Origin: a virus
Lineage: Duplodnaviria; Heunggongvirae; Uroviricota; Caudoviricetes
Strand: one strand, 5' to 3'
DNA: 39,214 bases
IMG/VR virus record: IMGVR_UViG_2541047122_000029
Shown here one piece after another: positions 2,603 through 39,214 of this stretch (its first letter is position 1; every line of letters starts with the position of its first letter). The notes under the pieces were generated by a model, which was not told the DNA's origin, did not search any database, and saw only the letters and a program-made list of their open reading frames with translations. The position numbers and the translations under genes were made by a program.

Positions 2603-3535
2603 ATGACTGATATTAACGATGTAATCAAGACCATTGATGAACTTATTGATGGCGGCGTACTGACACAGTATGCCATCGCCAGAGAGGCGGGAATTTCCGA
2701 CGGCACATTATCGGCTTTCCGTAAGGGAAAATATAAAGGCGATAACGCTGCTGTGGCTGCTTCCCTGCGTTCCTGGTATGAGAACTGGAATAAACAAAGC
2801 GCACTGCCGGAACCGCCGCAGTTTGTGGAAACGCAGACAGTCCAGGAGCTGCGCACACTGTTTCAGGCGGTTCGTCTGATGGGCTGTATTAACGTTATTG
2901 TGGGCGTACCGGGTGTGGGTAAAACGGCCACTGCCCGTAATTACTGCCAGGAGCAACCAAACACCTGGATGATCACCCTGTCACCCGCGCACTCCAGCGT
3001 CACGGAGTGTCTGCTGGAGCTGGCCGATGCGCTGGGGATTGATTACACCCGCGCGAACAAAGGGGCATTATCCCGCGCCATCCGCCGTCGCCTGATGGGA
3101 ACGCGTGGACTGGTGATTGTGGATGAGGCGGATCATCTTGGTATTGACGGTCTGGAGCAACTCCGGGCAATTCAGGACGCCACGGGGATCGGGATGGTGC
3201 TTATTGGTAACCCGCGCGGATTGTTTAAAGGTGGACGCCGCGCCTTTGATGATTTATCGCGCCTGTTCAGCCGTCTTGCCCGTACAAAACAACTTCGCAA
3301 GGCCAAAAAGGCGGATGTGCTGGCCATTGCCAGGGCGTGGGGGATCAGTGGTGAGGCCGAGCTGGCCGTCATGCAGGCTATCGCTGAAAAGCCGGGAGCG
3401 TTACGCGTTCTGACACATACGCTTAACCAGGCGTGGCTCACCGCCAGCGGTGAAGGTGCGGCGCTGACAGAAAAACATATTAATGCGGCCTTTAAAGAGG
3501 TTTATACCAACCCTGAATTACTCTCACAGGTGTGA
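2603..3535 (+). CDS. B: Mu B-like transposition ATPase / target DNA activator
   Basis: 310 aa; N-terminal HTH, Walker A GVPGVGKT, IVDEADHL Walker B-like motif, conserved LPEPPQFVETQTV; matches Mu B organisation. Confidence 0.9.
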   Translation: MTDINDVIKTIDELIDGGVLTQYAIAREAGISDGTLSAFRKGKYKGDNAAVAASLRSWYENWNKQSALPEPPQFVETQTVQELRTLFQAVRLMGCINVIVGVPGVGKTATARNYCQEQPNTWMITLSPAHSSVTECLLELADALGIDYTRANKGALSRAIRRRLMGTRGLVIVDEADHLGIDGLEQLRAIQDATGIGMVLIGNPRGLFKGGRRAFDDLSRLFSRLARTKQLRKAKKADVLAIARAWGISGEAELAVMQAIAEKPGALRVLTHTLNQAWLTASGEGAALTEKHINAAFKEVYTNPELLSQV

Positions 3536-3759: not shown

Positions 3760-4026
3760 ATGAGGTGTTATATGAATATGCAATCCTGCGGTAACAAAAT
3801 GAATTTATTCGACTCCCTGAACAGCGCGCGCCGTCTGACCGAACTTGCCGGTGCGGTACTGGAACGCAGTAAGCGCTATCCGCAACGTTTTGCACTGAAA
3901 ACCACGCCGCCGGTAGGCAACGTGCAGGGAACCGGTGAAATTGAAATCACCATACAGACCAACGGCCTGCGCCGCCGTGTGAAGGCCACCCGCATCAGCG
4001 GCTGCACGGTTTACTGGGAGGTGTGA
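3760..4026 (+). CDS. Hypothetical early protein
   Basis: 88-aa ORF. An internal ATG at 3772 preceded by GAGGTG may be the true start. Confidence 0.5.
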   Translation: MRCYMNMQSCGNKMNLFDSLNSARRLTELAGAVLERSKRYPQRFALKTTPPVGNVQGTGEIEITIQTNGLRRRVKATRISGCTVYWEV

Positions 4027-8686: not shown

Positions 8687-8876
8687 TCTACCCGCTGGAT
8701 GGGCGCGGCCACTAATGGCCAGGAAGCATCATTTTTTTAAAACAGGCGAAAATATCAGTATATGTGGACGGTGGTTATATCTGGCTCATAATCGCGAGCC
8801 GGATACATTTGAAAGCCCTGATGACTGTGCCGAATGCCGCAGAAGAGTGAATAAGGAGAAAGATAATGGACAATAG
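8679..8876 (+). CDS. Hypothetical small Cys-containing protein (possible zinc ribbon)
   Basis: 65 aa; Cys at ICGRW and CAEC; overlaps both neighbours. Confidence 0.45.
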   Translation: MNSLPAGWARPLMARKHHFFKTGENISICGRWLYLAHNREPDTFESPDDCAECRRRVNKEKDNGQ

Positions 8877-9162
8877 TTCTCTGTTGTTCTGGTGCTTATA
8901 TATCACATCCTTTTTCGGCGCATTTGTTATTACCCGGTGGTTATGTCGAAAAATCATCTGCTTTTTTGATAAAAGACATCCGGTTGAACGGGCGGCTGAT
9001 GCGCTCATTCAGCAGGCCATTGTGTTATATAGCGGTGAATTTTTCTGCCGAATAACAACCAGAGATGGCTGGCACATAATGATTATTCCACCAACACACC
9101 ATGCCCGGTGGGATGAGGCAGAAAAGGCTTTCCATGTCCGTAAAAAGGTAAATACGGTATGA
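8866..9162 (+). CDS. Hypothetical protein with N-terminal transmembrane helix
   Basis: 98 aa; hydrophobic N-terminus LLFWCLYITSFFGAFVITRWL. Confidence 0.5.
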   Translation: MDNSSLLFWCLYITSFFGAFVITRWLCRKIICFFDKRHPVERAADALIQQAIVLYSGEFFCRITTRDGWHIMIIPPTHHARWDEAEKAFHVRKKVNTV

Positions 9163-9668
9163 GAGGAAAACTGATATCCGCCATTCATGTGGCAAAGCGC
9201 GAGCTTGCCCTGGATGATGAGACTTATACATCCGCGCTGCTGGCAGCCACCGGCAAAACCAGCTGCCGGGATATGTCACCGGATGAGTTATCCCGCGTGC
9301 TGGATGTTTTCAAAAAACGCGGTTTTAAAGTGCGCCAGAAGCCGGTTAACCAGGCCTTAAAACCGGGTACGGTGACCGCCAAAATTCGTGCCATCTGGAG
9401 GGTGATGCACCGGCAGGGCTTTATCTCTGATGGTGCGGAAACCGCCCTTAACCGCTGGGTGAAATCGCAGACGGCCGCGCAGAACGGTGGCGAAGGTGTG
9501 GCAAACTGGCAGTGGCTGGAGCAACACCCCGCCCTGGCCTCAGATGTGCTGGAGCGTCTCAAGCGATGGCACCGCCGCAAAATGCTGGCCGCGATGGGAA
9601 TGCCCGAACGCACGCTGATGGGGTATGACGCCGTTTGCAGGCAGTATGAAAAATCACTTCCCCGTTAA
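9159..9668 (+). CDS. GemA-like protein (Mu gp16-like)
   Basis: 169 aa; N-terminal ...LISAIHVAKRELALDDETY... resembles the Mu GemA family as I recall it; last gene of the early operon, before a strong terminator. Confidence 0.55.
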   Translation: MRGKLISAIHVAKRELALDDETYTSALLAATGKTSCRDMSPDELSRVLDVFKKRGFKVRQKPVNQALKPGTVTAKIRAIWRVMHRQGFISDGAETALNRWVKSQTAAQNGGEGVANWQWLEQHPALASDVLERLKRWHRRKMLAAMGMPERTLMGYDAVCRQYEKSLPR

Positions 9669-9672
9669 CCCC

Positions 9673-9706
9673 AAATCCCGCCACAGCGCGGGATTTTTAT
9701 TTTAAA
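9673..9706 (+). terminator. Rho-independent terminator ending the early operon
   Basis: Perfect 9-bp stem AAATCCCGC (9673-9681) / GCGGGATTT (9688-9696), 6-nt loop, then TTATTTTAAA. Confidence 0.8.
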
Positions 9707-9737: not shown

Positions 9738-10163
9738 ATGGCAGAAACTCAGATGAGCATGTTTGGTGGTGACAGTGAGCAACTGCACGCCCTTATCGAC
9801 CGCCTTGATGACATCCCTGATGATGTTCTCAAAAAGAACTGGCCACGGACCCTGTCAGAACTGGTTGAAGTCACCGGCGCAGAACTTCAGCGTCAGGGGA
9901 TTGAGCCGGTACTGGCCGGTAAACTGGCACGCAAGGTGGCTGCGGCTCAGGCCGCCTATATGGGCGGACGGGGTTATTACCTGCCGGTCGGGGAATCTCT
10001 CTTTGCCGAGCTGCGAAACAATGAGATATTTTCGCGCTGGGACCGGGGCGAGAAAATTGAATCCCTTCGCCGACATTACCGGATGTCAGAAACCCAGATT
10101 TATACCGTCATACGTGAACAGCGCCGTCTGCATCTGGCAAGAACGCAACCGCCACTTTTCTGA
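9738..10163 (+). CDS. Mor/C-family transcriptional activator (middle/late gene activator)
   Basis: 141 aa; resembles Mu Mor/C (acidic N-terminus, C-terminal HTH ...SETQIYTVIREQRRL...). Only one member of this family is present in the window. Confidence 0.75.
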   Translation: MAETQMSMFGGDSEQLHALIDRLDDIPDDVLKKNWPRTLSELVEVTGAELQRQGIEPVLAGKLARKVAAAQAAYMGGRGYYLPVGESLFAELRNNEIFSRWDRGEKIESLRRHYRMSETQIYTVIREQRRLHLARTQPPLF

Positions 10164-10167
10164 TATT

Positions 10168-10181
10168 CCGCAAAGCCTGCC
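10168..10181 (+). promoter_or_regulatory. Candidate activator-binding motif of the lysis/late promoter
   Basis: CCGCAAAGCCTGCC, 54 bp upstream of the endolysin ATG; near-identical motif at 18095-18108 upstream of gene I. Confidence 0.4.
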
Positions 10182-10234
10182 GCCTTTCCTTCACCGTTAC
10201 GCTGACTCAGAGAACATCATGAGACAGCGTAACA

Positions 10235-10735
10235 ATGCCAAAACTCCCCGCACCACTGCGTAAAAAGCTGATTGCCCTTGTTCTGGCCGGTGCCGGGACG
10301 TTCACGATTGCCACGCATTACACCGGTTACTGGGAAGGGAAAGAAAACTCCACGTATATCGATCCCACCGGTACACCCACCATCTGTTACGGCCATACCG
10401 GCCCGGATGTGAAACCGGGTATGACCCTGACGGATGAAGAATGCCTGGAACTACTGGAAAAGGACATGAAATGGGCCTTTGCGGCCATTGATCGGCGTGT
10501 TCAGGTGCCGCTTACCCGTGGTCAGACGGTGGCGCTGGCTTCGTGGATCTTCTGGGCTGGTGAAACGAACTTCCGCAACTCCACGCTTCTGCGCCTGATC
10601 AATGCCGGGCAGATGCCCGCGTCCTGTAAGCAGTATATCCGCTGGATTTATTCAAAGGGGGTGAAACTTCCCGGCCTTGAGGCCCGCCGTTCGGCGGATG
10701 AATGGTTATGTCGCTACGACTTGCCGAAAGTCTGA
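10235..10735 (+). CDS. SAR endolysin (phage lysozyme, T4-lysozyme/GH24-like)
   Basis: 166 aa; N-terminal weakly hydrophobic signal-anchor-release segment LIALVLAGAGTFTIATHY; YWEGKENSTYIDPTGTPTICYGHTG contains the Glu-Asp-Thr catalytic pattern. Confidence 0.85.
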   Translation: MPKLPAPLRKKLIALVLAGAGTFTIATHYTGYWEGKENSTYIDPTGTPTICYGHTGPDVKPGMTLTDEECLELLEKDMKWAFAAIDRRVQVPLTRGQTVALASWIFWAGETNFRNSTLLRLINAGQMPASCKQYIRWIYSKGVKLPGLEARRSADEWLCRYDLPKV

Positions 10736-10808
10736 ACCGCTTCTGGCGACCGCTCATGATAGCGCTGCTGTGTGCGGTACTGCTGTTACGGGGTGTCCTG
10801 TGGCTGCG

Positions 10809-11198
10809 GTGAATAACGCCTTACCGGCCCTGATTGCCGGGGCGTGCATGGCGGCGCTGGGGATTATCGCTGTACTGGTTGCTGCGATATGGGGAATGCA
10901 CCAGAAGACGCAGCGCCTTGAGGACAATAATCAGGTACTTGTACGTGAGCGGGATGAGGCGCGTCAGGTGCTGGCAAATCAGCAGCACACCCTGCAACTC
11001 ATTTCACAAATCAGTGAGGCGGCCACGAATGAAAAGCAACAGAACATTCAGCACACCGAGGAGCAACAGAGCGTTGTCCGCCGGTCGCTGGCAGCAGTGC
11101 CTGCTGCCTCTGCCCCTGTTCCTGATGATGTGGCTGATCGGGTGCGCCGGGCCGTCTGTGAAATACGTGCCTGTGAAGCCGGTGCCGATCCCCGCTGA
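10809..11198 (+). CDS. i-spanin (Rz-like inner-membrane spanin)
   Basis: Within track ORF 10677-11198; N-terminal TM helix ALPALIAGACMAALGIIAVLVAAIW then Gln/Glu-rich coiled-coil. Start uncertain (GTG 10809 or ATG 10848). Confidence 0.65.
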   Translation: MNNALPALIAGACMAALGIIAVLVAAIWGMHQKTQRLEDNNQVLVRERDEARQVLANQQHTLQLISQISEAATNEKQQNIQHTEEQQSVVRRSLAAVPAASAPVPDDVADRVRRAVCEIRACEAGADPR

Positions 11199-11400
11199 AT
11201 GGCTGGCTGACTGCCTGGTCCCTCCTGCGCCGGAGCCGTTCACGTTTGGGGCATCGGTCACTTACAACCTGCAACTGCTGGCGGTGATCAAGAACTGCAA
11301 CGTGGACAAGGCCAGTATTCGTCGTCTGGAGGCGCGGCGACAACATGAATTTACTGATATGGCCGGAACGCCTGCTGTTCCGGCAGGAAAGACGAAGTAA
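11029..11400 (+). CDS. o-spanin (Rz1-like outer-membrane lipoprotein), overlapping the i-spanin in another frame
   Basis: Internal ATG of track ORF 10834-11400; signal peptide with lipobox LIGC, Pro-rich mature region VKYVPVKPVPIP; starts inside the i-spanin gene and extends past it. Confidence 0.7.
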   Translation: MKSNRTFSTPRSNRALSAGRWQQCLLPLPLFLMMWLIGCAGPSVKYVPVKPVPIPAEWLADCLVPPAPEPFTFGASVTYNLQLLAVIKNCNVDKASIRRLEARRQHEFTDMAGTPAVPAGKTK

Positions 11401-11410
11401 GGAAAAAGGT

Positions 11411-11638
11411 ATGGATGATTCAGATCGTGCTCAGGCTGTGATGGAGCGGGGATCAGAACGCGCCCTTTGTAACCGGCTGACACGTAAGCGCCGGGCAATG
11501 GATGCTCCGGGTAGACGTATTTGCGCGGACTGTGGCGGAGAGATCCCCGCCGCGCGTCTTGTTGCTGTGCCGGATGCCATCCGTTGTGTGAACTGCCAGA
11601 ACATCATGGAGGCCCGTCATGTGGGTCAGCATCGTTAA
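11411..11638 (+). CDS. TraR/DksA-type C4 zinc-finger protein
   Basis: 75 aa from ATG 11411 (RBS AAGGAAAAAGG); CADCGGEIP...RCVNCQ four-Cys motif. Confidence 0.6.
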   Translation: MDDSDRAQAVMERGSERALCNRLTRKRRAMDAPGRRICADCGGEIPAARLVAVPDAIRCVNCQNIMEARHVGQHR

Positions 11639-11930
11639 AGATTATGTTGTGCCGATCCTTTCGGCGACGGCAACCGCTGGCGGGATATTCATGGCGCTGA
11701 TGCGCAAAACGTTTGTCCCCCGCGAGGCCTTTGAAAAACTCTCCGACCGCGTTGAGAAGGTGGAAACCCGCCTGTCGTCACTGCCGACAGAAGCCGAGGT
11801 CAACCGTCTGAATGTGGAAATCGTGACCCTGCGGGGTGAACTGAAAACCACGAACGCCACGCTCCGCTCTGTCTCCTATCAGAACGAACTGCTGCTGGAG
11901 CAGGCTGTAAGGAAAAAAACGAATGAGTGA
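11619..11930 (+). CDS. Membrane protein with coiled-coil (possible lysis accessory/releasin-like)
   Basis: 103 aa; one N-terminal TM helix VVPILSATATAGGIFMALM then coiled-coil; lies between the lysis and packaging genes. Confidence 0.5.
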   Translation: MWVSIVKDYVVPILSATATAGGIFMALMRKTFVPREAFEKLSDRVEKVETRLSSLPTEAEVNRLNVEIVTLRGELKTTNATLRSVSYQNELLLEQAVRKKTNE

Positions 11931-12213
11931 TTTCATTACTGAAGATCAGCGTCTGGTCATTCTGCGGTCGCTGGCAGATTACAACGGTGAACTGGGTGAA
12001 TCCGTGCTCCAGGACTGTCTGGATGATTACGGCCACCGCGTGTCCCGCGACACCGTTCACACCCACATTGCCTGGCTTGCCGAGCAGGGACTGGTGCGCA
12101 AACGCGTTCTGATTAACGGTTATTTCATCGCGGAACTGACCGGCCGGGGGCAGGATGTGGCGGAAGGCCGCGCCAGCGTTCCGGGTGTGAAGAAACCACG
12201 CGCAAGGGGGTAA
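11923..12213 (+). CDS. Hypothetical winged-helix-like protein
   Basis: 96-aa ORF directly upstream of the packaging genes. Confidence 0.5.
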   Translation: MSDFITEDQRLVILRSLADYNGELGESVLQDCLDDYGHRVSRDTVHTHIAWLAEQGLVRKRVLINGYFIAELTGRGQDVAEGRASVPGVKKPRARG

Positions 12214-12215
12214 CG

Positions 12216-12797
12216 ATGGACAAGCCGACGCGTGGCCGCGTGCGCAAGGTGGATTTGCTCCCCGACAGCATCCGTAAGCCACTGCTGGAAATGCTGCGTG
12301 AAAAACGTCTGACGCAGGTCCAGATACGCGAGGAAATCAACCGTCTGATCCGTGAGGCGGGCCTGCCGGAAGAGCAGCAGCTTTCACCGGCGGCCATCAG
12401 CCGGGAAGCCTCCCGTAATGAGCTGATTGCCCGTAACCTGCGTGATTTACGCGAGCAGACAAAAGCCATGATGGCCGAACTGGGGGACAAGCCAACCGGT
12501 GAAACCACTGCATTGATCCTGGAGATGTCCCGCGCCCTGATGTACCGCCGTCTGCGTGCCGCGACCGAATCCCTGAACAGTGACAGCGACGTGGATATGC
12601 GTCTTATTAAGGACATCCTCCTGTCAGCACAGCGTGCGGAAAGTGCCGCCGAGCGCAGCATTAAGCGTGAAAAAGAAATCAGGGCTGCATTTGCTGAAGA
12701 GATGGCAAACGCCGTCACCGACGAGCTGCGCGGCGTGGACGGGATGAGTGAACAGCTTGAGTCCCGTATTAAGGGGATTCTGTTGGGTAAAGTCTGA
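12216..12797 (+). CDS. Mu gp27-like protein (putative small terminase subunit)
   Basis: 193 aa, highly charged and helical; immediately precedes the large terminase with an overlapping stop/start. Confidence 0.6.
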   Translation: MDKPTRGRVRKVDLLPDSIRKPLLEMLREKRLTQVQIREEINRLIREAGLPEEQQLSPAAISREASRNELIARNLRDLREQTKAMMAELGDKPTGETTALILEMSRALMYRRLRAATESLNSDSDVDMRLIKDILLSAQRAESAAERSIKREKEIRAAFAEEMANAVTDELRGVDGMSEQLESRIKGILLGKV

Positions 12798-33526: not shown

Positions 33527-34087
33527 ATGCTGATTGGCTATATACGCGTATCAACAAATGACCAGAACACAGGTTTACAAAGAAATGCGCTGGAATGTGC
33601 AGGATGTGAGCAGATTTTTGAAGACAAAATGAGTGGTAAAACGACACAGCGGCCGGGACTGAAGCGGGCACTGAAGAAACTAAAACCCGGTGACACGCTG
33701 ATGGTCTGGAAACTGGACAGGCTGGGGCGCAGTATGCGCCACCTTGTTGCGCTGACAGATGAATTACAGCAACAGGGGATAAATTTTCGTAGTTTTACTG
33801 ACAACATTGATACGTCAACCCCCATGGGGCGCTTCTTTTTTCACATAATGGGTGCGCTGGCAGAAATGGAGCGTGAATTAATTGTCGAACGGACACGGGC
33901 TGGTCTTGCAGCTGCCCGTGAAAGGGGACGAACCGGCGGCAGACCCCGCCGTCTCACGCAGGAACAATACGAGCAGGTCGGGCGTTTACTGGCCGGGGGT
34001 GTCAGTCGAAGACAGGTGGCACTTATTTTTGATATCGGTCTTTCAACCCTTTATCGTTATTATCCTGCGAGCGTTTCGGAAAAATAA
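33527..34087 (+). CDS. gin: Gin/Hin/Cin-family serine DNA invertase
   Basis: 186 aa; resolvase-type catalytic N-terminus MLIGYIRVSTNDQNTGLQ (catalytic Ser), C-terminal HTH; RBS AAGGAAGG upstream. Confidence 0.9.
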   Translation: MLIGYIRVSTNDQNTGLQRNALECAGCEQIFEDKMSGKTTQRPGLKRALKKLKPGDTLMVWKLDRLGRSMRHLVALTDELQQQGINFRSFTDNIDTSTPMGRFFFHIMGALAEMERELIVERTRAGLAAARERGRTGGRPRRLTQEQYEQVGRLLAGGVSRRQVALIFDIGLSTLYRYYPASVSEK

Positions 34088-34186: not shown

Positions 34187-36226
34187 ATGACGTCCAAATG
34201 GGTTCAACTATCATCAATGCCCGGAAACTTTACTGTTAAAGTTTCCGGTGGTACAGCGGCATTTCTTGAGGCTCCCTTTCCTCCGGCCGAAACAAAAGGA
34301 GGAATGACATTTGCTGACTGTCTCATCAGTTTTAATACACGGGATTGCCTGTGGGTAAGGCCAGTATCCGGTGATCCGAGTGTGGAAATTACCGGAGCGG
34401 GTATTGGTGCGGTCATTCCGTTAAGTGCTGATGTTGCCGGTACTGCTGAACCGTCAGACTGGGATAATGCTGAAACACATACCCGTCCGTCAGGAAATGA
34501 AACTGCTTCCAGCTCCCCTTCCTGGTATTACGTGGTGGTTCTTGCTGGTCAGTCAAACGGTATGGCTTACGGTGAAGGTCTGCCACTGCCGGAGACATAT
34601 GACCGCCCCGAACCGCGTATTATGCAGTTAGCCCGTCGCAGTACAGTCACGCCGGGAGGTAAAGCCTGTCAGTATAACGACATCATTCTGGCCGACCACT
34701 GTCTGCATGATGTGCAGGATATGAGTGGAAAAAATCACCCGAAAGCGGATGTGGCTAAAGGGCAATATGGCACCGTGGGTCAGGGGCTTCACATTGCCAA
34801 AAAACTGCTGCCGTTTATTCCGGCAGATGCGGGGATTCTGCTGGTTCCCTGCTGCCGTGGTGGTTCTGCATTCACGGCGGGTGCTGACGGCACGTACAGT
34901 GACAGCACGGGTGCTTCAGAGGACTCAGCCCGCTGGGGTGTGGATAAGCCGCTGTATAAGGACTTAATCAGCCGGACAAAAGCGGCACTGGCGAAGAACC
35001 CGAAAAACCGCCTGCTTGCTGTGGTGTGGATGCAGGGCGAGTTTGATATTGATGCGAAGCCGACGGAGCATTCTGCGCTGTTTCTGGCGATGGTGGAAAA
35101 ATTCCGCGCAGACCTGGCTGAACAGGCGGAACAGTGTACCGGTGGCAGTGCTGCTGGCGTTCCGTGGATTTGTGGTGATACCACGTATTTCTGGAAACAG
35201 AAAAACGAACAGGCATACCAGGCAATCTATGACGGCTACAAAAATAAAACAGATAAAAACATTCATTTCGTCCCATTAATGACAGATGAAAATGGCGCGA
35301 ATGTACCCACCAACAATCCGGCAGAAGACCCGGATATTGAATCCATTGGTTATTACGGCTCAACGTGGCGTAACAGTGCCGCCACCTGGACATCTACGGA
35401 CCGGGCCAGCCATTTCAGTTCATGGGCACGTCGTGGGATTATTTCCGACCGTCTGGCCACGGCAGTTCTGACTCATGCGGGGCGAACCACAGTAAAAGCC
35501 GATGTTCCATCTTCTGAAACTGAAGCACCAGTGCCGTCACCTTCAGAAACTGAAGCAGTAACCACAACACTGCTGTCTTACCGTGTCAGTGAGTCAGAAG
35601 GAAATCTGAAAGCCCAGGGCTGGGAGCCGGCTGGCGGTAAAGCTGAAATTATCAGTGATGCAGGAGGCACAGGTGGTAAGGCAATGAAACTGACCAAGGA
35701 AACAGGTAAATCATCCTGGTATCTGGATCATGATGCCGGTACTGGTGCTGAACTGCTGAAAAATGGTGGTTTAATCAGTTGTCGTTTTAAAGTACCGGGC
35801 GACCTGGTGGCAAACCAGTATGTCATGGCGCTTTACTGGCCGGTTTCCTCTCTGCCGCAGGGTGTCACCCTGACAGGGGATGCAGGGAATAATCTGCTGG
35901 CATCGTTCTACATCCAGACAGACGCAAAAGACCTGAATGTGATGTACCACAATGCAAAAGTGGCAACAAATAACCAGAAACTGGGAACCTTTGGTGCATT
36001 TGATAATGAATGGCATACGCTGGCCTTCCGTTTTGCAGGAAATAACAGCCTTCAGGTTATTCCGGTTATTGATGGTCAGGATGGTGCCGCGTTTACCCTG
36101 ACGCAGTCACCAGTAGGAACTTTCCCGGTGGACAAACTCCGCGTAACGGATATCACAAAAAATGCAACTTACCCGGTGCTGATTGACAGCATTGTGGTGG
36201 AAGTGAAAAAAGCGGTAACAGAATAA
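34187..36226 (+). CDS. Multidomain SGNH/SASA-type carbohydrate esterase with Pro/Ser/Thr/Glu-rich linker and C-terminal lectin-like domain (cargo gene)
   Basis: 679 aa; AGQSNGMAYGEG (catalytic-Ser GQSN block), WMQGEFD and DRASHF motifs match sialate O-acetylesterase-type domains as recalled; linker PSSETEAPVPSPSETEA; no N-terminal signal peptide; sits between gin and com/mom, where Mu has no gene. Confidence 0.75.
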   Translation: MTSKWVQLSSMPGNFTVKVSGGTAAFLEAPFPPAETKGGMTFADCLISFNTRDCLWVRPVSGDPSVEITGAGIGAVIPLSADVAGTAEPSDWDNAETHTRPSGNETASSSPSWYYVVVLAGQSNGMAYGEGLPLPETYDRPEPRIMQLARRSTVTPGGKACQYNDIILADHCLHDVQDMSGKNHPKADVAKGQYGTVGQGLHIAKKLLPFIPADAGILLVPCCRGGSAFTAGADGTYSDSTGASEDSARWGVDKPLYKDLISRTKAALAKNPKNRLLAVVWMQGEFDIDAKPTEHSALFLAMVEKFRADLAEQAEQCTGGSAAGVPWICGDTTYFWKQKNEQAYQAIYDGYKNKTDKNIHFVPLMTDENGANVPTNNPAEDPDIESIGYYGSTWRNSAATWTSTDRASHFSSWARRGIISDRLATAVLTHAGRTTVKADVPSSETEAPVPSPSETEAVTTTLLSYRVSESEGNLKAQGWEPAGGKAEIISDAGGTGGKAMKLTKETGKSSWYLDHDAGTGAELLKNGGLISCRFKVPGDLVANQYVMALYWPVSSLPQGVTLTGDAGNNLLASFYIQTDAKDLNVMYHNAKVATNNQKLGTFGAFDNEWHTLAFRFAGNNSLQVIPVIDGQDGAAFTLTQSPVGTFPVDKLRVTDITKNATYPVLIDSIVVEVKKAVTE

Positions 36227-36231
36227 AAAAA

Positions 36232-36260
36232 TCCCGCCGGTCATGATATGGCTGGCGGGA
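36232..36260. other. Stem-loop immediately downstream of the esterase gene
   Basis: TCCCGCC (36232-36238) / GGCGGGA (36254-36260); preceded by A7 (36224-36230), so it reads as hairpin plus U-run on the minus strand; no U-tract after it on the + strand. Confidence 0.4.
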
Positions 36261-36372
36261 GCTACCTAACCCATAAAGGAAAATAAAAATACTCCCGAAG
36301 GAGTGGTTATCAGTCGCTTCGATGTTTTTACCCGATAACGAATTATGTAGTCAATATCAAAGGTAAGGTTAT

Positions 36373-36555
36373 ATGACATTCGTTCATACAATGCTGCTTT
36401 ATTTCTGCGCAGTGGTCAGTGCGTTATATCTGGTGAGCGGCGGTTATAAGGTCATCAGAAATTATATTCGCCGTAAAATTGATGATGCGGCAGCTGAAAA
36501 ACTCAGTAAAACAGCACAGGCACCGTCATCCCCAAACGACCCGACCCCGCTCTGA
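36373..36555 (+). CDS. Small single-pass membrane protein (cargo, unknown function)
   Basis: 60 aa; TM helix MLLYFCAVVSALYLVSGGY then charged tail; RBS AAGGTAAGG upstream. Confidence 0.55.
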   Translation: MTFVHTMLLYFCAVVSALYLVSGGYKVIRNYIRRKIDDAAAEKLSKTAQAPSSPNDPTPL

Positions 36556-37446: not shown

Positions 37447-37647
37447 ATGTATCGAAACATACGGTGCCGACACTGCAATAAGCTACTGGCACGGGCCAGT
37501 TTCAGTTATCTGGAAGTAAAATGTCCGCGCTGTAAAACCCTCAATCAAATCACATCTCCGAGCGCCACAGAGCACCCCACATACACAAGGAAATCCTGTC
37601 GTGGGGAACAGAAAGCAAGTCACATCCCGTATCATCAGCACGCCTGA
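37447..37647 (+). CDS. com: Com-like zinc-finger translational activator of mom
   Basis: ATG 37447 (RBS AGGAGG) inside track ORF 37402-37647; [13 protein letters not shown]...[12 protein letters not shown] matches Mu Com (IRCKNCNKLLFKA...IRCPRCKRH) as I recall it; overlaps the next gene. Confidence 0.75.
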
Positions 37648-38338
37648 ACTTATTCGCTATAACGACAATATCGTTGGTTATGGCTCCCGTGAGTTGCGGG
37701 TTGAGACAATAAGTTGCTGGCTGGCCAGACTGGTCATCGTCAATAAACATTACAGCCACCGTTTCGTAAATAACTCCTACCTTCATCTGGGCATATTTTC
37801 AGAACGGGAGCTGGTTGGCGTAATGCAATGGGGCTATGCCCTTAATCCAAACAGTGGTGCACGCGTCGTAACGGGCACGCGGAACCGTGAATATATGGAG
37901 CTTAACCGGTTATGGCTGCATGACTGTATGCCGAGAAACTCCGAATCAAGGGCAATCAGTTACGCGCTCAAGCTAATCAGGCAGCTTTATCCGCAGGTAC
38001 AGTGGGTTCAGTCGTTTGCAGATGAGCGTTGTGGCTGTCTTGGTGTCGTGTATCAGGCAAGCAATTTTGATTATGTAGGCAGCCACGAATCAACATTCTA
38101 TGAACTTGATGGCGAGTGGTATCACGAGATTTGCAGGAATGCCATTAAACGAGGCGGACAGCGAGGTGAACATCTGAGGGCTAATATCGACAGAGCCAGT
38201 GTTCATAAATTCCGTCAGTTTCGTTACATCCGGTTTCTGAACAAGAGGGCCAGAAAACGCCTCAACACAAAGCTATTCAAAGTCCAGCCTTACCCAAAAC
38301 CACAAACAGTTAAAACTGGTTTAAAAGAGAGTGAGTGA
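37601..38338 (+). CDS. mom: Mom-like DNA modification protein (anti-restriction)
   Basis: 245-aa ORF overlapping the end of com; ...[16 protein letters not shown]...[23 protein letters not shown] resembles Mu Mom as I recall it. Start uncertain (GTG 37601 in track). Confidence 0.75.
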
Positions 38339-38920: not shown

Positions 38921-39214
38921 TGAACCGCCCCGGGTTTCCTGGAGAGTGTTTTATCTGTGAACTCAGGCTGCCAGATCATCGTTTCCGATGGAAGCATAAT
39001 AAGCTTTTTCTGCTTCTGCCGGAGGAGTATGGCCCAGCCTTCCCAGCAATCGTCGATTGTTATACCAGTCCACCCACGTTAGTGTGGCCAGTTCCACTTC
39101 TGCACGGTTTTTCCAGCTCTTACGGTGTATTACCTCCGCTTTGTAAAGACCATTGATGCTCTCAGCCATCGCGTTGTCATACGAGTCGCCTGTACTCCCT
39201 GTTGATGCCAGTAA
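38921..39214 (-). mobile_element. IS3-family insertion sequence, partial (continues past window end)
   Basis: Terminal sequence TGAACCGCCCCGGGTTTCCTGGAGAGTG from 38921; minus-strand transposase 3' end lies 42 bp inside it. Confidence 0.8.
38963..39214 (-). CDS. IS3-family transposase OrfB, C-terminal fragment (5' part outside window)
   Basis: Minus-strand frame open to the window edge: ...GDSYDNAMAESINGLYKAEVIHRKSW..., matching the DDE-integrase C-terminal block of IS3-family OrfB; stop at 38963-38965. Confidence 0.8.
   Translation of the reverse strand, partial: LLASTGSTGDSYDNAMAESINGLYKAEVIHRKSWKNRAEVELATLTWVDWYNNRRLLGRLGHTPPAEAEKAYYASIGNDDLAA

Follow-up and report, generated by a model that had tools for sequence, protein, structure and literature searches.

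How does a Mu-like prophage open its host cell when no recognizable holin accompanies its endolysin? The question is raised by positions 10,235 to 11,930 of the IMG/VR virus record IMGVR_UViG_2541047122_000029, a Caudoviricetes sequence of 39,214 nucleotides that was analyzed at its full length and is referred to here as the window. Judged from its sequence, this window of 39.2 kb is an essentially complete Sp18-type Mu-like prophage of Escherichia coli. In the locus, a gene for an endolysin with a putative signal-anchor-release (SAR) domain is followed on the plus strand by genes for an inner-membrane spanin subunit (i-spanin), an outer-membrane spanin subunit (o-spanin), and a 103-amino-acid (aa) membrane protein. 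An original prediction described it as a holin-less lysis cassette with nested spanin genes and proposed the 103-aa protein as a lysis accessory factor comparable to the releasin of phage Mu. We find that the locus represents the releasin-type lysis system of Mu in diverged form, and that its differences from Mu leave the kind of system unchanged. Between the endolysin and i-spanin genes it appears to encode an additional membrane peptide, which bears on the question of the missing holin.

Collinearity with the lysis region of Mu

The region is collinear, gene by gene, with the Mu genome (AF083977) from gene 21 to gene 28, where the order is C (gene 21), the promoter Plys, and the genes for gp22, gp23, gp23.1, gp24, gp25, gp26, gp27, and gp28. 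In blastp comparisons, the lysis gene products are significantly similar to their Mu counterparts at 27 to 40% identity, the gp24 position excepted, and the next two genes match gp26 (63% identity, E = 1.2e-39) and gp27 (57%, E = 2.1e-73). The comparison with Mu gp22 to gp25 that had been suggested for this locus thus resolves into homology with full synteny. Experiments with Mu established gp22 as a SAR endolysin and gp23 and gp23.1 as the spanin subunits, and deletion of gp25 blocks timely lysis (PMC9239132). The window has in common with the Mu cassette the gene order, with a C-type activator upstream and gp26, gp27, and the large terminase subunit downstream, a lysozyme of the E-x8-D-x5-T pattern whose N terminus is basic and then weakly hydrophobic, overlapped spanin genes, a DUF2730 protein with an RR/RK junction motif, and the lack of a recognizable holin. 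It differs in an extra peptide gene, a zinc-finger gene at the gp24 position, the absence of genes 18 to 20, the presence of one Mor/C-family regulator, and the absence of a terminator between the activator and endolysin genes.

A releasin homolog of the DUF2730 family

The 103-aa protein, encoded at 11619-11930 (plus strand), matches the Pfam family DUF2730, of which the Mu releasin is the prototype (PMC9239132), with E = 7.4e-20 and 71.4 bits (cut-off, 24.9) over profile positions 3 to 101 of 102, a better fit than that of Mu gp25 (50.4 bits). It also matches PHROG 736 (E = 6.9e-32) and shows 34% identity to gp25 (E = 3e-17 by blastp; E = 9e-10 by tblastn against all phages). Hydropathy is given here and below as KD19, the Kyte-Doolittle 19-residue maximum, for which 1.6 was the threshold for ordinary membrane helices. 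A helix at residues 10 to 28 (KD19, 1.80) is followed by M-R-K and by a helical, presumably cytoplasmic domain of about 75 aa, and the positive-inside rule places the N terminus outside and the C terminus inside. In a single-sequence AlphaFold2 model, used for secondary structure only, helices span residues 2 to 28, 35 to 52, and 58 to 102, at low confidence (predicted local distance difference test score, 63).

An Arg-Lys pair at the membrane/cytoplasm junction is conserved according to Chamblee et al. (PMC9239132). With its similarity to gp25, its N-terminal membrane helix, and its RK junction motif, the window protein is of type I. Because the DUF2730 match covers the full profile and the RK pair is present at the junction, these sequence features identify the 103-aa protein as a releasin homolog. 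The membrane helix and helical remainder on which it had been compared with the Mu releasin are both there, and homology now takes the place of analogy. Its gene has a GGAGG 7 nt 5' of the ATG, its product is 80% conserved between the E. coli and Citrobacter lineages described below, and the gene ranks fourth among the annotated genes that follow the endolysin gene (fifth if the small open reading frame [ORF] described below is counted); all phage DUF2730 genes lie within a five-gene range of the endolysin gene (PMC9239132). In RefSeq, the protein is named only “DUF2730 family protein.”

The original prediction passed over the gene that precedes the releasin homolog. Located at the Mu gp24 position (11411-11638, plus strand), it encodes a 75-aa C4 zinc-finger protein of the TraR/DksA family (Pfam zf-dskA_traR, 4.6e-12; NCBIfam TIGR02419, 8.9e-22; PHROG 54, 2.2e-19). 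Its similarity to Mu gp24 is weak (E = 0.04 by blastp), and gp24 does not reach the zf-dskA_traR family in Pfam, whereas the window protein clearly does. The order of zinc-finger and DUF2730 genes also occurs in Shewanella phage MuM16-2 and Klebsiella phage Kp4866-3, whose endolysins are of a non-SAR, GH108 type and whose membrane proteins differ. In the late lysis block of Kp4866-3 (locus L046, 489-2791), a gp18 homolog and a multihelix ORF at the gp19 position directly follow the non-SAR endolysin gene, which suggests that, where a Mu-like phage has a cytoplasmic endolysin, the part of the holin may fall to a gp19-like protein.

The endolysin and its N-terminal anchor

The first gene of the cassette (10235-10735, plus strand) encodes a 166-aa lysozyme homologous to Mu gp22 (Pfam Phage_lysozyme, 6.3e-37; PHROG endolysin, 8e-51). 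The identity to gp22 is 39% over residues 1 to 155 (blastp, E = 1e-32), and a pattern search placed the catalytic triad at E34-x8-D43-x5-T49. The N terminus reads MPKLPAPLRKK and continues with LIALVLAGAGTFTIAT. In the stretch from L12 to T27, 9 of the 16 residues are Ala, Gly, Ser, or Thr, and the KD19 maximum is 1.39 (Mu gp22, 1.09), compared with 1.8 to 2.6 for the true membrane helices of the window. From the RKK cluster, the weakly hydrophobic stretch that follows it, and the homology to gp22, we infer that the endolysin is of the SAR type, in agreement with what had been proposed for its N terminus.

Endolysin-based scans for relatives returned one locus from genome contigs, in Citrobacter braakii, and 37 loci from IMG/VR, most of them near-identical; locus L043 was rejected as a relative, because the phage it comes from is unrelated and itself carries a holin-like gene. 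The motif LRKK is invariant in all relatives, and so are the catalytic triad and the SAR-like composition, features in which the endolysin resembles gp22. That the basic cluster R9-K10-K11 directly abuts the helix and is invariant fits a locked anchor that needs help in leaving the membrane. Mu gp22 has the basic pair K6-K7 instead, and these adjacent basic residues in its cytoplasmic N terminus confer dependence on gp25 (PMC9239132). The 16-residue SAR stretch of the window endolysin contains 2 Gly residues, that of gp22 contains 5.

Overlapped spanin genes

The i-spanin gene (10800-11198, plus strand) encodes a Mu gp23 homolog of about 132 aa (PHROG 214, Rz-like spanin, 9.1e-33; 27% identity to gp23, E = 5e-7 by blastp), with an N-terminal membrane helix (KD19, 2.64 at residues 12 to 30) and a helical, presumably periplasmic domain. 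GTG 10800 and GTG 10809 are the alternative starts. The former is likely the true one, because the Citrobacter homolog has an ATG at the equivalent position and a conserved GGGG lies 6 nt 5' of it.

The o-spanin gene (11029-11400, plus strand) encodes a predicted outer-membrane lipoprotein precursor of 123 aa (Pfam LysC, 4.4e-16; PHROG 3001, 7.8e-42), which is 40% identical to Mu gp23.1 (blastp, E = 9e-14) and rich in Pro (14 of 123 residues). As originally described, it carries the lipobox LIGC and starts inside the i-spanin gene in another frame. ATG 11029 is in the +1 frame with a GAGG 9 nt 5', and is likely the true start; this ATG and the lipobox (LIGC, LTGC, LSGC, or LTAC) are kept in all relatives. 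The predicted lipidation site is Cys39, and the next residue is Ala rather than Asp. In RefSeq, the gene model “lysC” from the PGAP annotation starts at GTG 11158, past the codon of the lipobox Cys (11143-11145), and consequently lacks both the signal peptide and the lipidation site.

The two spanin genes overlap by 170 nt, and the o-spanin gene runs on for 202 nt beyond the i-spanin stop at 11198, close to the 200 bp first reported. The term “nested” has to be replaced, since an embedded gene would end inside the i-spanin gene, and the architecture is overlapped. The Mu o-spanin gene likewise extends 202 bp past gp23. The overlapped spanin genes of P2, LysB and LysC, have the same +1-frame start inside the i-spanin gene, end beyond it, and encode a Pro-rich lipoprotein with a canonical lipobox, whereas Rz1 of lambda is embedded in Rz. 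The P2 spanins are partnered by holin Y and endolysin K; the endolysin and release system of the window are of the Mu type.

A conserved small ORF between the endolysin and i-spanin genes

The endolysin gene was thought to be followed by the i-spanin gene. Both are present, and between them lies a small ORF (10708-10812, 34 aa, or 10702-10812, 36 aa; plus strand) that is not annotated in RefSeq: MSLRLAESLNRFWRPLMIALLCAVLLLRGVLWLR. It spans the gap of about 65 nt between the endolysin stop at 10735 and the i-spanin gene, starting in the -1 frame within the last endolysin codons and ending with a TGA that overlaps the i-spanin start region. ATG 10708 is better conserved than ATG 10702. The peptide would form one strongly hydrophobic membrane helix (KD19, 2.31).

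The ORF is open and has the same end point in all 41 junction-bearing sequences (the window and 40 other loci, drawn from E. coli, Citrobacter braakii, and IMG/VR contigs). Over the 64 nt that it does not share with other genes, the ratio of nonsynonymous to synonymous polymorphism (pN/pS) is 0.39 when read in its frame, the i-spanin frame gives 2.43, and the third frame is interrupted by stops. Parsimony placed 77 substitutions on a tree of 34 haplotypes, of which 42 are synonymous in the small-ORF frame (28% expected; binomial P = 1e-6), and neither of the other two frames of the stretch shows a synonymous excess. Between E. coli and Citrobacter, the peptide is 62% identical, compared with 41% for the i-spanin and 40% for the zinc-finger protein. 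These substitution patterns indicate that the peptide gene is real and under purifying selection in its own frame. Starts of the i-spanin gene at ATG 10698 or GTG 10770 were rejected, as the sequence up to 10799 behaves like noncoding DNA in that frame (pN/pS as above; 17 of 77 substitutions synonymous). GTG 10770 is the start used in RefSeq, where the i-spanin is named “hypothetical protein” or “endopeptidase,” and it falls inside the stretch selected in the small-ORF frame.

Relatives of the peptide are few. A phmmer search of 1.84 billion representatives gave one true match (P0003, a called gene of 34 aa) and two repeat artifacts, and tblastn against phages found it only in two Shiga-toxin (Stx) phage records that bear the same inserted Mu-like element. 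It matched no family in PHROGs (E ≤ 0.01) or NCBIfam (E ≤ 1), and in Pfam (E ≤ 1) only PsaM, by chance (E = 0.98; 9.7 bits, cut-off 21.1). No counterpart was found in phages Kp4866-3 and MuM16-2, and the searches turned up no relative beyond this prophage lineage. Mu does not have the ORF, and its gp22 and gp23 genes overlap. Mu gp20 resembles the peptide in having 39 aa and one membrane helix, but it shows no sequence similarity, belongs to the middle genes, and is dispensable for lysis. Lcc6 of Shewanella phage LambdaSo, a small membrane protein of lysis, shows that extra factors can be required for this process; it is longer than the peptide, with 43 cytoplasmic residues beside its membrane helix, and is encoded elsewhere in its genome.

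In one locus (L031, 3405-3995), the hydrophobic tail of the small ORF is fused in frame to the endolysin. The sequence reads as if a base had been gained after a Lys codon, and there are other local frame errors, so that the fusion is probably an assembly error; if real, it would yield a C-terminally anchored endolysin. A programmed -1 frameshift between the endolysin gene and the small ORF was rejected, as no slippery heptamer occurs in 10698-10735. Our working guess is that the peptide modulates lysis timing; the candidate roles are those of a regulator of the timing of SAR release, a minimal depolarizing peptide, and a modulator of the spanins.

The activator and the region upstream of the endolysin gene

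Upstream of the cassette lies the gene of a Mor/C-family late transcription activator (9738-10163, plus strand; Pfam Mor, 2.8e-32). In blastp against Mu (AF083977), its product is nearer to C (40% identity, E = 1e-32) than to Mor (27%, E = 1.7e-13). Whereas Mu has both Mor and C, this is the single Mor/C-family regulator of the prophage, as tblastn with the Mu Mor and C queries found no second copy in the window. The 71-bp intergenic region that follows (10164-10234, plus strand) presumably holds a late promoter equivalent to Plys, since the Mu record has the C-dependent Plys at the equivalent position. No sigma-70 consensus was found in 10164-10234, as would be expected if the promoter were activator dependent.

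In Mu and in the Citrobacter braakii relative, a GC-rich hairpin terminator (L001, 1884-1907; L008, about 3900-3925) separates the activator gene from the endolysin gene, whereas it has been lost in the E. coli lineage of the window; transcription of the activator gene may therefore run on into the lysis operon. A terminator-like hairpin is present directly after gemA (9673-9696), and tblastn with queries from the Mu record revealed no homologs of the Mu middle genes gp18, gp19, and gp20 in the window. With one Mor/C-family regulator, this hairpin, and no middle genes 18 to 20, the middle/late cascade may be simpler than that of Mu.

Is the cassette holin-less?

As originally stated, no holin-like ORF lies between the activator and endolysin genes; indeed no ORF does, as the gap is too short. 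A hydropathy scan covered every ORF of at least 30 aa on both strands of the window. Once ORFs contained within longer genes are set aside, the membrane-helix ORFs of the plus strand are those of the DUF2730 protein, the small peptide, the i-spanin, and the o-spanin (signal sequence), together with 8866-9162 and a DUF1378 gene (36373-36555). An extra hit at 20608-21027, among morphogenesis genes, is a 139-aa ORF with an internal hydrophobic stretch (KD19, 1.79). None of the membrane-helix ORFs that were compared with Pfam, PHROGs, and NCBIfam matches a holin family. DUF1378 genes of lambdoid phages sit immediately upstream of the holin gene; no lambda-type holin was found 3' of the DUF1378 gene here. 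A tblastn search of the window with lambda S, S21, P2 Y, and P2 LysA also gave no match, a negative result of little weight. The ORF at 8866-9162, located just 5' of gemA in a segment of 42% GC, encodes a 98-aa protein with an N-terminal membrane helix (PHROG 17269) and is the only other small membrane protein of the early/middle region.

By analogy with Mu, a holin-less cassette is the best reading. The lack of a match to any known holin family speaks for the original prediction on this point, which overlooked the conserved membrane-peptide ORF and in which the absence of a holin is extrapolated from Mu. Holin-less thus stays unproven in view of two small membrane candidates, the 98-aa protein and the peptide encoded within the operon. 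The endolysin has an N-terminal SAR-type domain in common with the endolysins of pinholin systems (R21 of phage 21, which is paired with S21, and Lyz of P1). The window differs from phage 21 and P1 in that it has no pinholin homolog, and the DUF2730 releasin is predicted to bring about release.

Proposed lysis pathway and alternative explanations

We regard it as most likely that this late operon of the Sp18-type prophage brings about lysis as shown for Mu. Homology, synteny, the catalytic motif, the features of hydropathy and charge, the lipobox, and the overlap of the spanin genes are seen in the sequence itself; SAR release, dependence on the releasin, and the absence of a holin function are carried over from Mu. 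The Mor/C-family activator would turn on the promoter in the gap 5' of 10235. The endolysin would be exported via Sec and held inactive, tethered to the inner membrane by the SAR helix and locked there by R9-K10-K11. The DUF2730 protein, with its N terminus outside and its helical domain in the cytoplasm, would promote escape of the SAR helix from the bilayer, whereupon the freed lysozyme would refold and degrade the peptidoglycan. After loss of the wall, the i-spanin and the lipoprotein o-spanin, already bridging the periplasm, would fuse both membranes. No recognizable holin would be involved.

Several observations weigh against this interpretation. Sp18, the Mu-like prophage type of O157 Sakai, is predicted to be intact and was not induced by mitomycin C (PMC2669165), so that the lytic competence of Sp18-type prophages rests on prediction. 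The position of R9-K10-K11 and the few Gly residues differ from Mu gp22, and releasin dependence may differ as well. Both the small peptide and the 98-aa protein might contribute to lysis by acting on the membrane. Some Mu-like phages whose endolysins are cytoplasmic also have DUF2730 proteins, and the role of the family may be broader or different. Finally, signal peptidase could cleave at the small residues of AGA-G and TIA-T, with possible sites after A20 and A26, in which case the N terminus would be a conventional signal peptide and not a SAR anchor. The last two points are what would be expected if the endolysin were simply secreted and the DUF2730 protein were unrelated to release, serving, for example, head assembly or DNA packaging; the adjacency of its gene to gp26 and the terminase genes and the DUF2730 genes beside the non-SAR endolysins of Kp4866-3 and MuM16-2 agree with this. 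We nevertheless consider that explanation highly improbable. The alignment with gp22, an experimentally shown SAR endolysin, includes the N terminus, the hydrophobic stretch is rich in Ala, Gly, and Thr as in SAR domains, an uncontrolled secreted lysozyme would lyse the cells too early, and knockout of gp25 in Mu has a lysis phenotype.

The remaining alternatives concern the small peptide. If it were a miniature pinholin, i.e., a depolarizing trigger of SAR release to which the DUF2730 protein is only accessory, the cassette would not be holin-less. Its place inside the late lysis operon, its strongly hydrophobic helix, its purifying selection, and its conservation, which exceeds that of the i-spanin, are compatible with such a role; furthermore, SAR endolysins are generally freed by depolarization. 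With 34 aa and a single helix, however, the peptide is shorter than any holin we know of, and it matches none of the holin families in Pfam, PHROGs, and NCBIfam. The releasin homolog, moreover, is full length and well conserved between the lineages, which argues that the job of release has been kept. The phage 21 pinholin is able to free gp22 of Mu, yet in Mu dinitrophenol (DNP) delays lysis rather than triggering it, and gp19, gp20, and gp25 showed no holin activity and no triggering by DNP (PMC9239132). A pinholin function of the peptide therefore seems quite improbable to us.

A regulator of timing in the releasin pathway, such as a nonreleasable, “anti-releasin” SAR decoy, or a modulator of the spanin complex is likewise unlikely, if less far-fetched. 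The peptide has a basic N-terminal segment (R4, R11, and R14) ahead of its helix and a predicted N-in topology, as in a SAR domain, and its frame is under purifying selection. In P2, the lysis-timing gene lysA also sits between the endolysin and i-spanin genes. A mimic could compete for the releasin, given that gp25 acts on diverse SAR domains and is not sequence specific (PMC9239132). On the other hand, the case is purely inferential: the peptide has no homolog of known function, only a weak Shine-Dalgarno-like GGCGGA lies 9 nt 5' of ATG 10708, and translation is a prediction. That the peptide is a new component of the releasin system at all, whether a timing regulator that acts as a decoy of the SAR anchor or a depolarizing peptide that replaces a pinholin, is possible but rather doubtful.

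The prophage and its distribution

Other Mu-like genes of the window encode MuA transposase (441-2531), MuB (2603-3535), GemA (9159-9668), a gp27-like small terminase subunit (12216-12797), Gin invertase (33527-34087), and Mom (37601-38338); Gam, the large terminase subunit, a Mu-type portal, MuF, tail sheath, and tape measure genes were recognized as well. Between Gin and the com/mom region (34187-36555) lies cargo typical of Stx and lambdoid phages, consisting of a 679-aa SASA/DUF6645 esterase (a NanS-p-like 9-O-acetylesterase) and the DUF1378 protein, which has 60 aa and a single helix. Beyond Mom, on the minus strand, a fragment resembling the C terminus of an IS3-family transposase (integrase core; 38963-39169) probably marks host or insertion sequence (IS) DNA at the right prophage boundary.

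Positions 10100-12000 are 100% identical to the chromosomes of E. coli 2010C-3347 and two O157:H7 strains. At 80 to 100% identity, this stretch is present in 231 of 5,426 complete E. coli genomes (about 4%), and the carriers of the lineage include O157:H7 and other Shiga-toxin producers. The ORFs of the cassette are all intact. In the phage collection, the element was found only as an “inserted Mu-like phage” within the two Stx-phage records.

Implications for releasin-type lysis

Our findings extend releasin-type, apparently holin-free lysis from Mu to a diverged prophage lineage. With its different basic cluster, its few Gly residues, and the better DUF2730 fit of its releasin homolog, this lineage is a naturally occurring variant against which ideas on the recognition of SAR anchors by releasins can be compared. 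The results are also of use for annotation, namely, for the RefSeq name of the releasin homolog and for the starts of the o-spanin and i-spanin genes. Only the small peptide could change how such lysis is understood. Should it influence lysis, no earlier regulator of a releasin system would have been described, and, were it either a timing regulator or a depolarizing peptide, this widespread E. coli prophage would have a level of lysis control that is missing from Mu.

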